A DNA stretch of 64,000 nucleotides, taken from positions 10,540,001 through 10,604,000 of the forward strand of contig OX597820.1 of the NCBI GenBank assembly GCA_951406725.2, in the 5' to 3' direction. This document shows, piece after piece, positions 26,636 through 62,079 of the stretch. Origin of the DNA: Octopus vulgaris. Its lineage: Eukaryota. Numbering within the stretch: the first letter of the stretch is position 1; each line of letters starts with the position of its first letter. The notes beneath the pieces are model-generated. The model worked only from the letters and a program-made list of their open reading frames with translations. It ran no database searches and had not been told where the DNA came from. A program made the position numbers and the translations under genes.

Positions 26636-26726
26636 TTTATTTTATAGAAGGAGTTCTACAGGACTAGAACTGTTTCATTTGAATGAAACAGTTCTAGTCC
26701 TGTAGAAGCTCCTTCTATAAAATAAA
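26636..26726. repeat. Near-perfect hairpin (about 44-bp arms) in a TA-flanked element
   Basis: tttattttatagaagg..ctgtttcatt TG aatgaaacag..ccttctataaaataaa. Confidence 0.9.
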
Positions 26727-27295
26727 TTAATTTACTCTACTATGTATTGAGTACCTTATTTACTGTGGTTAACCCCGACTCAACCCGGGACCTACATATA
26801 TATATATATACATATATATATATATATATATATATATATATATATATATATATATATACGCACATATAAATATGTTTTTGTGTGTATTGAAAATAGAATT
26901 ATAAGCTTTCGTTGTATATTGATTATAGGAAACAATCTAATACTAGAGCACATAAAATATCCAAGAGCAGACAAAAGCAGGCATTAGTGCGGGTAGGATC
27001 GGTTCCCACATGTACTGAGGCACATTTCTTTTCCCTGCGGTGAATTATATCCCGAAATATTAGACTATTTTCTATAGGCATATAGGGTGAAGGGTTAAAA
27101 TCCTATTTAGAATATTTCAATTCACACGTTTACAGATATATGCGCAGGCACGCGTATATATATATATATATATATATATATATATATATATATATATATA
27201 TATAATATTAATTAGAGACAAAACCACTATTTTGCAAAACAAACAAGGAAAGACTTAATCAATACATAAAATTTTAATAAAAAGTAAAAAAACCG

Positions 27296-27339
27296 CCACT
27301 ACAATTGTTTCATGTCCTCTAATGACAATCTTCAGGTGG
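27296..27339 (-). ncRNA. Minimal type I hammerhead ribozyme in a TA-flanked element
   Basis: Reverse complement ccac CTGAAGA t tgtc-attagag-gaca t GAAAC aatt GTA gtgg. Confidence 0.75.
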
Positions 27340-28239
27340 ATTTCCGATCTAAAATATCAATATATTAAAATATAAGTTTAAAATAATTTTAAAATAAAAA
27401 AAAAAAAAAAATTTATTCATATTATTCCCTAATATTTATTATTATATATATATATATATATATATATATATGTGTGTGTGTGTGTGTATACGGCAACAAG
27501 AAAATGGAAGGGATTAAGAGGTGGTATTCATCAACTTTTAGGCATTATATTATGTCTATTTATTTTATATATTTTATATATCATAATTATTATAATTATA
27601 TGAAAAGAGAAATACGAACTACTACAGTAATCCTCCCTTTTCAACACATGAAATATGTATGTGCCTATGAGTATGTTTGTACGTAAATATACATATATAT
27701 ATATATATATATATATATATATATATATATATATATATATATATATATATATATATATATATATATATATATATATATATATATATATATATATATATAT
27801 ATGTATATATACATATATATATATTCTTTATTTATATATCTTTTCATTCCTACAAACTATAACACCCTTAAGCTAGATTGATTATTTAAATTCCAATATT
27901 ATTTCCCTTTTGATAATTTTCTCTTTCCTCTAATAAGAATAATATAATTCACTTAATAATAATATTAAATAATAATAATAATAAATAATAATAATAATAA
28001 TTGATTCCGTTGTATGCATATATATATATACATATAAATATATGGATATGTATTTATGTATAATTATGTATATATGTATATTTATATGTATGTATATATA
28101 TATATATATATATGTATATATATATATGTATATGTCTATATATATATATGTCTATATATATATATATATATGACCTCGTGTGTACCGTTGGCGATTTTTT
28201 CCCACTGTCTTCCCTTCTCGGGATCTTTCCTTCTCCTAT

Positions 28240-28274
28240 GTTTCCGACGAAGATCTCCGCTCGAAACGTTAAGC
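28240..28274 (+). ncRNA. Minimal hammerhead-like motif (U4C core) in TA-flanked element 28172-28377
   Basis: gttt CCGACGA a gatc-tcc-gctc GAAAC GTT aagc. Confidence 0.55.
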
Positions 28275-28424
28275 CCTCCTTCTTCCCTTCTTTCCTGAGC
28301 GTCCAATAATACTATATTTGTTCCACGTCCTCGCGTTGTTGTGTTTTTTTTGTGCTTTCTTGTTTGGATAAACTTGATATATATATATATATATACACAC
28401 AGGTATGTATGTACATATTCTTTT

Positions 28425-28615
28425 ATTATTTTCTGCATCTATTTGTTTTGGTCATTTGACTGCAGCCATGCTGGAGCATCGTTTTGAATTACTTTAGTCC
28501 CCAAGACTTATCTGGTGTTTATTCTATCGGTCAATTTGCCGAACCGCTACTTCACGGGGTCGTAGACACACCAACATCTATTGTCAAGCCGTGATGGGAG
28601 CACAAACACAGGCAG
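28425..28615 (-). mobile_element. SINE family A, 3' half
   Basis: gtcatttgactgcagccatgctggagca. Confidence 0.7.
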
Positions 28616-28851
28616 GTGTCTGTGTGTATGTGCGTGTGTGTGTGTGTGTGTGTGTGTGTGTGTGTGTGTGTGTGTGTGTGTGTGTGTGTGTGTGTCTGTA
28701 CTAAGAAATAAATTGTTTGTCATCTAAAAACTAACGTGACGAATGAGCAGTCTTCTAAGGGAAGCAACCAAGCTGTAAAATTGCCTAAAATACCATATAC
28801 GTTTAACCAACGGTAGGTTGGAGACATGGATGTAAGTGAATGAATGATTTT

Positions 28852-29000
28852 GTGGCTGTGTGGCATGAGGCTTTCTTCCCAGCCATATGGTTCTGGTTTC
28901 AGTCCCACTGTGTGGTAACTTGGGGAAGTGCTTGCTACTATAGGTCCCGTCGGCCAAGTCTTGTGAGTGGATTAGGTAGACAGAAGCAGAAAGAAGGCCC
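28852..29000 (+). mobile_element. SINE family A, 5' half
   Basis: gtggctgtgtggc..ttcagtcccactg. Confidence 0.65.
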
Positions 29001-29309
29001 TTGAAATCTGACATTGAACTGTTCCACAAAAAACTGTATATTACACGCTTTTACTAAATATCTTATTCTGAAACAGAACACTGTAAAAGACTCTTACTTT
29101 TTTTCTTATACACTGAAATCATTCACAAAAAATGAACATTGTATTCTAACCCAATTTTTCTCTTTTTTTTGTTTAAAAACAGAACTTTCACCTAACTAAA
29201 TACACTCTCCCTTACTTAAATTATTTTGTCAGCATTTTCTTCATTTCCTTTTTTTATATATCACAACTCGTGTTCCACATCCCCTTTTTAAAATATATAT
29301 ATATATACG

Positions 29310-59168: not shown

Positions 59169-59582
59169 AATATTTACAGCTTATTTTTCTTAACATCGAC
59201 TGCTTCGAATTACAAATTATTTCACGTTCTCTCAACATTTGTAACTTCTTATGATGTAAGCAACTAAACAAAGGCTTCATAAGAAATCATACACAATAAA
59301 AAGAAATTCATAATGATTAAGTGGGTTGAAAGTTTATATTTAATATTGTGTCTTATGATGAAAACAAATTTGTCGATTGTGTTTTGTAATCAATACTTAC
59401 CTCGAAAGAAAATCATGAAACATTAAGAAAATTCATTTATAATTCTTCTGATAGATTGACATCTTGAGTGCTTGTGTTTACTGGAAAATAATAGTGTTAT
59501 ATTAAACCAATTAATTATGAAATACTTGTATCAAGTTTTATATTTCTATCTTCTTGAGCGGATGTAATGAAGTAATACTGCA

Positions 59583-59902
59583 GACGCGTATCTAAATGGT
59601 TAGGATATTCGGATCAAGATTGTGAAAAAGATAGTTCGATTTCTGGTGGCTCTATGGGTCCTTGAGCAAGAAACTTTATTTCACGTTGTTCCAGTCCAAT
59701 CAGCCGGCAAAAATGAGTAGGACCTTTACTTCAAAGGGGCCAGACTTGTCACATTCTTTGTCATGCTGGGTCTCTCTGAGAATTACATTAAGTGTACACG
59801 TGTCAGTGGTATGGTCAGTCACTTGCACGTTGATTTTCCGAACATGCTGTTCCATTAATCGGATCAGCTGGAATCCTTGAAGTCACAACCGCCGGAGGAC
59901 CA
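59583..59902 (+). mobile_element. SINE family E, diverged
   Basis: gtccttgagcaagaaactttatttcacgttg. Confidence 0.7.
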
Positions 59903-59932
59903 GTTTAATTCAGTAATATTTTAGTTTACTTA

Positions 59933-60148
59933 AGGCTGCAAGCTGGCAGAAACGTTAGCACACCAGCTGAAATACTTAGCGGTATTTCATCCGTCTTTAC
60001 GTTCTGAGTTCAAATACCGCCGAGGTCGACTTTGCCTTTTATCATTTCGGAGTCGATAAATTATGTACCAGTTGCGGACTGGGGTCGATGTAATCGACTG
60101 GCCCTCTCCTACCAAAATCTCGAGCCTTGTGCCTAGAGTAGAAAAGAA
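59933..60148 (+). mobile_element. SINE family C
   Basis: Head plus one unit, tail gtgcctagagtagaaaag. Confidence 0.88.
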
Positions 60149-61392
60149 TATTTTAGATTCTGTAGGAACTAAACCCGATTAAAAGTGGCAAAGAAAGTAA
60201 ATCTGCTCATATTTTATTTATTTCAAACACAGGATGAGTTGAATTTCGTAGACTATTTACTTACAAAGGGAATAGTATTTCAATTGTACGTTGCAATGCT
60301 GGCAGAACATTTCATATGCGTGGCAGGACGAAAAACAATCAAATCGAGATTTGGAAATAAGAGAAACAGGTTTAAACGTATCTGCATTTTCCGTCTACTT
60401 AATAACTCTTTCATGAATAAAAAAACACATAACATTCTTGTCTTCTAATAAATTGTAGACGGAATATAAAGCCTGTTGTCTTCCAAAAAAAACACAAGCT
60501 TCTTACCGTACACTCGAATAACCTCACTTCTCATGCAACGGAGATCTTTTAGAAGGAGCGATGTTGCCATGTCTCACTCACTCACTCACTCTGTTTGTCT
60601 CTCTGTGTCTCTGTCTCTCTTTCTCTCTTCCTTATTATACTCATGTATCTATATATACAACATACATACATAATTATATATATACTTATGTATATATATA
60701 TATATATATATATATATATATATATATATATATATATATATATACACACTCATATATATATATATATATATATATATATATACGTATGCATGTTTATGTA
60801 TGTATATATATATATCTATCTATATATATATATATATATATATATATATATATATATATATATACATACATATATATATATATGTGTGTGTGTGTGTGTG
60901 TGTATTACATTGCTACAGACAGATACGGAACCGGCACCAGTTAAGGATACAATTCTACAGGGTTGCTTCTGTAACGAAGTAGATTTTGCATTAAATATCA
61001 AAGATATTCTGCTCCTTAGTTTTGTCAGAATAAAAATGACAGTATACCTCCATTTGTTTCAACTTAGATTATTTGCACTTCATATAAACGCTATATAAAC
61101 GTAATTATATATAAATGTATATATATATATATATATATATATATATATATATATATATATATATATATGTATATATGAATATTTAAGTAGATAAATGAAT
61201 TATCTTATTACGGATAAATCGAAAGATAACCGATACCTGGGTAGCAAACTCACAACAGAAAGAACACGGTTGAAGTTACATCCATAGGGCATATACTCCG
61301 TGCCTTAGTGCAGAAATTTGAAGTTTAATTTAATATTATAAGTATAGGAAAGAATGGAGCTGAGCGAAGATTTAACAAAATTCCTTTATTTT

Positions 61393-61478
61393 ATTTTCGA
61401 CATATGTTTCGAAGTCTGCAAAATTCCTAATTCCGAATGAATAAGGAGTCCATTATGCAGCTTTCTCATCAGGAAAAT
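61393..61478 (-). ncRNA. Canonical type I hammerhead ribozyme with extended helix II
   Basis: Reverse complement attttc CTGATGA gaaag-ctgca...tgcag-acttc GAAAC atat GTC gaaaat. Confidence 0.82.
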
Positions 61479-61566
61479 CCAGGAACTTCTTTCGACAACA
61501 AAATGCAGAACAAGTTTTTAGATGACTGCTCTCGAGGAGCCCATAGCGACAATGATAAATAGTGTC

Positions 61567-61593
61567 TATTTATAGGGGGTGACGTCAGATTGG
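61567..61593 (-). promoter_or_regulatory. CCAAT box, CRE (TGACGTCA) and TATA box cluster
   Basis: Reverse complement CCAAT c TGACGTCA ccccc TATAAATA, about 90 bp upstream of the HHR on the same strand. Confidence 0.6.
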
Positions 61594-62079
61594 TTGAATG
61601 TAGGAGAAACTGGCAGTTACTAGAGTTCAAGGGTTCAATCGAGGTGGGATGAGGAAGGTAAAAGAATATTAAGGTGAGGGAGTGTATTCCGTTTGACTGG
61701 TGTTTAAATTTGATTTATTTTATGAATGAGTGCTCGTATGTGTGAGTGTGTATAATTGTCTTAATGTGTGTGTGTGTGTGTGTGTCTGTGAATGCGTGAT
61801 TGTGTGTGTAGAAGGCTGACAGAAAATTAACAGTTAGGAGGTGAACGGAGAGCAGAGAGAGCCCACAATTGTAGTGACAAGAGACGAGGGGACTACTGGA
61901 ATTGGTAGCAGCTCTTAGAAATTATGAGAAAATCTTATAAACTAAAGGGATGAGATATCACAAATTGATTTTGTAGGGAATCCAGGGGTTATCTATATTA
62001 GACTTCACTGGTATGAGTGAAAGGTATGCTTTTTCCAGTGTAAACATCTGAAAGATCTCTAGACAATCGAGTTTATTAT

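Follow-up and report, generated by a model that had tools for sequence, protein, structure and literature searches.

Penelope-like elements (PLEs) of the Hydra clade, as described by Craig et al. [quoted passage not shown] They carry a sense-strand type I hammerhead ribozyme near the 3′ end and insert at (TA)n, where partial tandem and inverted copies with a tail are found; in the supplement of that paper, 26 of 27 Hydra families are entered as preferring (TA)n, and the canonical hammerheads given there include Hydra-1_Obim of Octopus bimaculoides. Retrozymes, in turn, are described as non-autonomous PLE derivatives, and a 2026 preprint (10.64898/2026.07.22.740005) derives them from the pseudo-long terminal repeats (pLTRs) of PLEs. 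Among cephalopods, 235 Rfam hammerhead matches are reported for the giant squid (PMC6962438). Here we analyse a stretch of 64,000 nucleotides of the Octopus vulgaris genome (assembly GCA_951406725.2, contig OX597820.1, positions 10,540,001 to 10,604,000), hereafter the window, in whose coordinates all positions are given. A preliminary description had listed about 11 type I hammerhead loci in it, most of them in TA microsatellites, and had taken them all for non-autonomous elements. Our reading, to which we give a probability of about 85%, is that members of at least 13 unrelated families with hammerhead motifs have piled up here, some being truncated 3′ ends of protein-coding Hydra-clade PLEs and the others short non-coding elements. 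The latter have likely been copied by the same kind of reverse transcriptase (RT) and endonuclease into TA-rich DNA.

The type I descriptor required a C3-G8 or U3-A8 pair in the core, a helix I of at least 4 bp, a helix II of at least 3 bp (a closing mismatch or an extra A was tolerated), UH, and for helix III an insert that pairs and is 2-10 nt long. Composed after inspection of the listed loci, it returned nine strict sites in the window, representing six insertions and all lying at 27.3-61.5 kb, versus means of 0.05 sites in 150 dinucleotide shuffles of the whole window and 0.07 in 150 shuffles made within 1-kb blocks (maximum 1). The motifs are therefore in clear excess over dinucleotide-shuffled sequence. 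Every listed coordinate is accurate, falling on the first base of a motif of hammerhead type or of its reverse complement. Six of the 11 loci pass the strict descriptor as sited: 27296 (-), 31468 (+), 45721 (-)/46183 (+), 48412 (-)/48754 (+), 51332 (-) and 61393 (-). Five fail it: 28240 is mismatched in helix II, 33245 carries A6U and its GAAA is broken, 33578 has U4A within a G3-C8 core, 38585 has A9C, and 50858 has G8A and U16.1C.

These five are decayed or non-canonical members of hammerhead families. Genome searches gave 1,189-4,534 first-look candidates for each element, including a repeat at 52020 that had not been listed, and pass rates were taken from the best 20 loci per family (30 for one family). 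The motif is formed by 16/20 fetched copies of the 28240 family, 11/20 of the 38585 family and 9/20 of the 50858 family. The 33245 family scores 0/20 under the strict descriptor and 9/20 once A6U is permitted, and the 33578 family 0/20 and, under a G3-C8 descriptor, 14/20. Rates for nine families are 25/30, 11/20, 20/20, 17/20, 20/20, 16/20, 20/20, 11/20 and 9/20, while none of 20 copies of the 52020 repeat passes.

A genome sample of 80 evenly spaced 10-kb stretches (800 kb of an assembly of 2.8 Gb in 227 contigs) held 22 strict sites in 19 stretches, versus a mean of 0.6 in 10 shuffles. This is one strict site per 36 kb, or ~75,000 genome-wide by extrapolation. The six window insertions represent 3-4 times the genome rate (Poisson p 0.005-0.008), and TA runs number 19 per 10 kb at 26-62 kb versus 13 in the genome sample, so the window, which is rich in microsatellites, is a locally dense sample of a genome-wide phenomenon. 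Counting all insertions, 13 lie in 26.6-62.1 kb, two of them beyond the loci of the preliminary description, whose estimate of one locus per ~3 kb holds. An Rfam scan of the window contained no hammerhead among 143 rows with E up to 1, and Rfam searches of ten family loci and one 331-nt stretch gave neither a hammerhead nor a tRNA; that minimal PLE hammerhead variants escape Rfam would be expected.

The fetched loci contain 75 distinct motifs with 51 different helix I sequences, and their 3-8 positions are C3-G8 in 53 and U3-A8 in 10, versus C3-A8 in five and U3-G8 in five; an A3-U8 core was looked for among these motifs and not found. The five helix III palindromes named in the preliminary description are all present; at 31468 and 48412/48754 the helix III is near-palindromic only. 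In minimum-energy folds of dimers, four of the six window motifs form an intermolecular helix III and retain helices I and II.

Four of the loci lie in the following PLE pieces, given with their strands.

27205-27442, minus: 5′-truncated 3′ end (pLTR) of an apparent Hydra-clade PLE, with an inverted tail; intact hammerhead at 27296-27339.
51320-54232, minus: 5′-truncated apparent Hydra PLE in three pieces; hammerhead at 51332-51417, inverted tail at ~54088-54232.
61177-62075, minus: 5′-truncated PLE 3′ end, apparently of Hydra type, with TA on both sides; intact hammerhead at 61393-61477.
50669-50974, plus: 3′-terminal piece of a longer element that is probably a Hydra PLE; its hammerhead, at 50858-50905, has decayed.

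Judged by sequence motifs and homologs, the 27296, 51332 and 61393 loci are truncated 3′ ends of protein-coding Hydra-clade PLEs, and 50858 is probably the end of another; the claim that all the loci are non-autonomous therefore fails for three of the 11 and probably for a fourth. The 27296 hammerhead has a C3-G8 core and a palindromic helix III, and in one fetched locus of its family (L251) two pLTRs 5.56 kb apart enclose RT and GIY-YIG frames. The 51332 element (pieces 51265-51981, 52660-53012 and 53493-54068) was split by two later insertions and retains in the window the end of its GIY-YIG frame (~53800-54068); the RT was not reached in this family. At 61393 the last 22 endonuclease codons remain at 62008-62073, the copy being cut at an arbitrary point, and 27/30 copies of the family have PLE coding sequence (RT and GIY-YIG) upstream. 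For the 50858 family, an endonuclease remnant lies upstream on the same strand in one of 20 copies, and the upstream part is common to many copies.

Frames of the 27296, 51332 and 61393 families all have DKT for DKG, RWK, no CCHH, and C-terminal CxxC and CxH. The CxCx5C linker occurs in the 27296 and 51332 families, in 4/7 intact frames, and was not seen in the 61393 copies read. A homolog search returned 42 longer, mostly unnamed proteins. Among the PLE frame matches listed, 59/61 are free of stops, and seven fetched intact frames of ~710 amino acids belong to one Hydra-type family. The genome holds dozens of such near-identical intact frames, which suggests that this family is active now or was recently. 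In a GIY-YIG at the C-terminus, DKT and RWK, lack of CCHH, 3′ sense-strand hammerhead, (TA)n insertion, and partial tandem and inverted copies with a tail, these elements resemble the Hydra-clade PLEs of PMC8557442. They differ from Hydra-1_Obim of its supplement in hammerhead sequence, which points to other families, and from Hydra PLEs described there at <3 kb in the 5.56-kb period of the 27296 family and in the long, repeat-rich 3′ regions of some. The preliminary description had conceded that novelty would fall if the motifs were ends of known Penelope families, and this is largely so: hammerhead-bearing Hydra PLEs in (TA)n have been described, one of them from an octopus.

A second group consists of non-coding units, most of them with tandem copies.

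31153-31811, plus: 562-bp non-coding tandem unit, one unit plus a ~100-bp terminal repeat; hammerhead at 31468-31530.
45497-47169, plus: very young 363-bp tandem element, apparently a retrozyme, with 3.5 units plus an inverted copy.
45721-45762 (minus), and 46183-46224, 46546-46587 and 46909-46950 (plus): U3-A8 hammerheads of the 363-bp element, the last with a helix III mismatch.
48240-49023, plus: fold-back insertion of a ~365-bp non-coding unit; hammerheads at 48411-48456 (minus) and 48753-48798 (plus), with a U4C core.
51982-52710, plus: partial tandem of a ~905-bp non-coding unit, nested in another element; of the hammerhead it has no more than half-cores.

The 31468, 45721/46183 and 48412/48754 families appear to fit the non-LTR retrozyme type, being non-coding with one hammerhead per unit. 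Exact motif copies in the genome number 342 for the 31468 family and 914, with the U3-A8 core, for the 363-bp family, whose best matches on different chromosomes are at least 99% identical and whose cleavage-to-cleavage monomer folds far better than shuffles (z = -6.9). Direct spacings of ~363 and ~562 bp recur at many loci, and a spacing of ~365 bp was seen at 1/20 loci of the 48412/48754 family. The ~905-bp unit (the 52020 family) sits in an AT/TA tract of the PLE at 51320-54232. Tandem, terminally redundant and fold-back structures are thus all present, as had been claimed. In 20 loci each of the 363-, 562-, 365- and 905-bp families, no linked PLE protein match was found. Like the animal non-LTR retrozymes of Cervera and de la Pena 2020 (PMC7229834) and of the 2026 preprint (Li, Clavereau and Pollet), these families consist of non-coding units, 360-900 bp long, that follow one another head to tail and carry a type I hammerhead apiece; the monomer is strongly structured and PLEs co-occur. 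Unlike in those retrozymes, the arrays are short, dispersed, TA-flanked and often inverted in the manner of PLE insertions. No description of the window families was found in the cephalopod literature searched, and the supplements of the 2026 preprint may list similar ones.

Two readings were rejected: that the 562-bp family is tied to a Hydra PLE ~15 kb right of the window (the shared piece is internal, not the PLE end), and that the 52142 repeat is a type II hammerhead (helix I is unpaired). The PLE concerned belongs to a young Hydra-type family (L263:5036-8359 and L415-L420). In 6/6 copies its microsatellite-like 3′ region holds, in inverted orientation, an old piece with 80-88% identity to the 562-bp retrozyme, an insertion that travels as a passenger when the PLE is copied. 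Outside the window, hammerhead families related to one another (L076, L086, L106, and L256 compared with window 46183) differ in C3-G8 to U3-A8 as well as in a compensated change of the helix III palindrome, which is direct covariation between relatives.

The 33578 family is distinguished by its core, a feature on which the preliminary description had not remarked.

33456-33772, plus: ~245-bp non-coding element that faces an inverted, shorter copy head-to-head; motif of hammerhead form at 33578-33628.

Its family core is GUGAACA, with G3-C8 replacing C3-G8 (the window copy also has U4A). Besides this core, the family motif has a helix I of 7 bp, one extra G, a helix II of 5 bp that G10.1-C11.1 closes, the GAAA box, a helix III that is palindromic, and UU at the cleavage site. 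The exact pattern occurs in 4,951 copies in the genome; the reversed-pattern control gave none, and neither did the same pattern with a C3-G8 core. Copies were present in 5/80 sampled stretches, which suggests ~20,000 in total. Loop II varies among subfamilies and the core is constant. When a whole copy is folded to minimum energy, both helices, I and II, are formed and the core is unpaired, the overall z of -1.0 not being significant. The 5′ start of the element is fixed, its 3′ end lies at either of two points ~60 nt apart, and head-to-head pairs are frequent; these ends and pairs are the PLE tail signature. One copy is skipped exactly by contigs in runs of two studies, with 7 letters that fit either side; at this place the assembly has a direct repeat of 7-9 nt that agrees with them, neither end is a splice site, and the site is AT-rich and not a microsatellite. 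If the runs are from the same species, this indicates an empty allele and recent mobility.

Whether the motif works as a ribozyme has to be weighed separately. We predict that the family still self-cleaves. Counting against activity, slow cleavage is predicted from U17, the G3-C8 pair and the tiny helix III; in the family, neither helix I nor helix II showed a double change; and copies retain sequence upstream of the predicted cleavage site. The whole proposition, that this is a natural hammerhead with an inverted catalytic 3-8 pair on a still-mobile 245-bp element of at least 4,951 exact and perhaps ~20,000 copies, is accordingly offered as a tentative one, with odds slightly short of even. 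No natural G3-C8 hammerhead was found in the literature searched, which yielded engineered mutants and natural U3-A8; outside it, Seehafer 2011 and Lunse 2017 may contain one, the former having reportedly accepted all Watson-Crick pairs at 3-8, so that G3-C8 candidates may be among those it lists. Natural 3-8 variation is reported as U3-A8 (PMC3088659; PMC4209133), and no mention of a G3-C8 core was met with for the minimal PLE hammerheads of Cervera and de la Pena 2014 (PMC4209133); here it is fixed in at least 4,951 copies. The same swapped pair has been made in engineered ribozymes, where C3G/G8C partly restores cleavage (PMC11167929; PMC8495972); unlike those mutants, the 33578 family is natural, high-copy and apparently still mobile.

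The remaining hammerhead-related insertions are the following.

38500-38685, plus: truncated copy, with inverted tail, of a ~290-bp element; hammerhead at 38584-38629 (A9C here), outside TA.
28172-28376, plus: 3′ end of a longer, CA-rich element; hammerhead at 28240-28274 with a U4C core and an extra A.
33160-33365, plus: older element (75-86% identity); decayed hammerhead at 33245-33280, family core A6U.
26636-26795, no strand assigned: fold-back of the 3′ half of a 13th hammerhead family, with TA on both sides and helix II truncated.

The 38585 element has a tRNA-like head, an (AAT)n tract and the hammerhead, with 3,673 exact motif copies. Matches to the A and B boxes in the head were made by eye against the box consensus; ARAGORN found no tRNA gene in 25 loci of the family, and Rfam no tRNA match. 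Like Schistosoma Sm-alpha and Sj-alpha (PMC6765202), it has a Pol III-type promoter-like head followed by a type I hammerhead; unlike them it is mostly single or head-to-head, its helix III is minimal and an (AAT)n tract lies in its interior. The motif is directly repeated at 2/20 loci of this family and at 0/20 of the 33578 family, neither of which forms the head-to-tail tandems of retrozymes, and 7/20 loci of the 38585 family have inverted duplications of PLE type. The two families work like non-autonomous PLEs and are not classed as retrozymes. The 28240 family extends at least 0.8 kb upstream as CA-rich sequence in which no reading frame was reached. The half motif of the 13th family (GAAA, helix III and the 3′ strand of helix I) is at 26685-26707 (+) and 26654-26676 (-), and longer copies at other loci have the whole motif. 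At 57124-57604 there is a further fold-back with a tail between TA runs, which has lost the 3′ half of a hammerhead like that of 50858; a longer relative (L345) has this half.

The association with TA holds for most families. Downstream ends lie at (TA)4+ in 29/29, 15/19, 11/11, 17/19, 16/18, 19/19, 13/15 and 9/19 cases by family (the 27296, 51332 and 61393 families contributing 16/18, 15/19 and 29/29, respectively) and in 8/19 of the 33245 family, versus 3.7% of background positions; these family figures are biased upward, since simple repeats were masked in end-calling, which favours stops at TA. The genome sample is unbiased, and in it a TA run follows within 300 nt downstream in 15/22 motifs versus 21% of random positions (p ~3e-6), three of the misses being motifs whose stretch ended before any TA run, two of them near the stretch end. 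Two families with few inversions have 5′-truncated copies abutting TA in 10/19 and 14/18 cases. The TA adjacency noted in the preliminary description thus extends to most families, with the 38585 family standing apart.

These features would be accounted for as follows. Transcripts may arise by read-through or, in the 38585 family, from the tRNA-like internal promoter. Two ribozyme copies would join by way of the palindromic helix III, and their cleavage would be slow or assisted by protein. [quoted passage not shown] An anole PLE is described as nicking AT-rich DNA, priming internally at two sites and cleaving with protein assistance in vitro (PMC11167929). TA tracts would be re-used as targets, also inside older insertions, so that elements nest and cluster. 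The variation of the 3-8 pair between families (C-G, U-A or G-C) suggests selection on the folded ribozyme.

Several results weigh against this account. Ribozyme-dead mutants of the anole element still insert in vitro (PMC11167929), and eight of nine dimers tested in the 2026 preprint (10.64898/2026.07.22.740005) did not cleave. Five of the 11 window copies are decayed; full palindromy was found in just 12/25 distinct even-length helix III inserts of at least 6 nt; and the compensated helix III change of the 51332 family could be partly explained by CpG decay. The Hydra assignment was made by motifs and homologs, not by a tree, Pfam gave no significant family for six RT/endonuclease pieces, and a PDB sequence search with the RT piece gave no match. 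TA preference is partial in the 33578 family (18/43 ends beside TA) and absent from the 38585 family (0/19). Mobilisation by a PLE RT/GIY-YIG, as proposed in the preliminary description, agrees with the intact frames; as to a specific partner, no autonomous element was found whose ends recur in a non-autonomous family, and the flanks of the seven intact frames, ~0.7 kb long and falling short of the hammerhead, matched no short family.

Other explanations share some of this evidence. The hammerhead folds could be a protein-binding or structural RNA signal, or fossils, with no cleavage in the cell and mobility independent of the ribozyme. Such a view would fit the dispensability of cleavage for in vitro insertion and the report of no reads ending at the cleavage site (PMC11167929), as well as the weakening changes in many families (U4C, A6U, U17 and G3-C8), the ~905-bp family that spreads with half-cores only, and the 33578 copies that keep sequence 5′ of the cleavage site, so that uncleaved RNA was the template. 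We consider it unlikely, though still a serious contender, since unrelated families preserve both the core letters and the 3-8 pair, with paired cores exceeding unpaired ones, and since in the 33578 family loop II changes between subfamilies while the core does not. About as unlikely is a different source of the enzyme, with the short elements moved by another TA-targeting PLE clade (Neptune or Naiad) or the 38585 family by a LINE. Neptune-like frames (so labelled from the motif pattern) do occur in flanks of fetched loci, octopus Naiads with a (TA)n preference are listed, and the 38585 family adjoins (AAT)n tails resembling those of LINEs; against this, the U-U closing pair or the odd-palindrome helix III that Hydra hammerheads have is found in several of the short families too, and the inverted duplications of the 38585 family are of PLE type.

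The TA runs might also be tails made by the elements, through slippage or as carried tracts, and not targets that were already there. TA is commoner at 3′ than at 5′ ends, the 3′ regions of some PLEs include TA/CA tracts of their own, and the sole empty site seen lacks a microsatellite. We nevertheless hold this to be improbable, as variably 5′-truncated copies abut TA too (the window copy at 61177-62075 among them), one family is nested in the pre-existing AT/TA tract of another element, and the PMC8557442 supplement gives (TA)n as the target of nearly all Hydra families. Least probable of all, with very little to be given to it, is that every locus is the broken end of an autonomous PLE and that truly non-autonomous elements are absent. 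Three or four of the 11 loci are such ends, and the apparent short unit of the 28240 family proved to be the end of a longer element; but frame-free head-to-tail arrays repeat the whole unit at periods of 363, 562 and ~905 bp, the 33578 and 38585 families have fixed 5′ starts amid unrelated flanks, and no linked PLE protein match was seen in the 20 loci examined for each of the 363-, 562-, 365- and 905-bp families. For the tandem families this explanation is largely refuted.

The window contains other repeats. At 54582-55493 (+) is the remnant of a Mariner/Tc1-like transposase (so labelled from its motifs) in an element at ~54275-55568 flanked by TA runs, and at 44901-45420 a low-copy segment between TA runs gives the impression of a decayed DNA transposon piece. 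A decayed, TA-flanked region at 55700-56720 (-) has a translation loosely like the endonuclease end of a PLE, unscored by tblastn. Further short segments lie between TA runs at 26859-27154, 27825-28017 and 47190-47470, the last a high-copy repeat by read depth. Elsewhere there are a 5S rRNA-like sequence at 5425-5543 (-) (Rfam, 60.2 bits), a CA-rich 54-bp minisatellite of ~29 copies at 10739-12366, and an abundant SINE-like repeat, tandem or clustered, at 6685-7235 and 58560-59180 (184-bp period at 6685).

The bulk of this finding is known biology in another genome, namely PLE and retrozyme hammerheads and the (TA)n targeting of the Hydra clade. What it adds is a large load of ribozyme motifs, ~75,000 strict ones by extrapolation, of which Rfam detected none in the window. 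In PLEs, cleavage by the hammerhead is weak, and it was dispensable in the one in vitro system. A high-copy family in which both C3 and G8 have changed and yet remain paired argues for a selected active-site geometry, and with G3-C8 beside young U3-A8 and C3-G8 families and intact candidate helper proteins it provides a natural test case. If the G3-C8 interpretation is true, a single genome would offer a natural series on whether PLEs are selected for cleavage and on how slow a cleavage they can tolerate.

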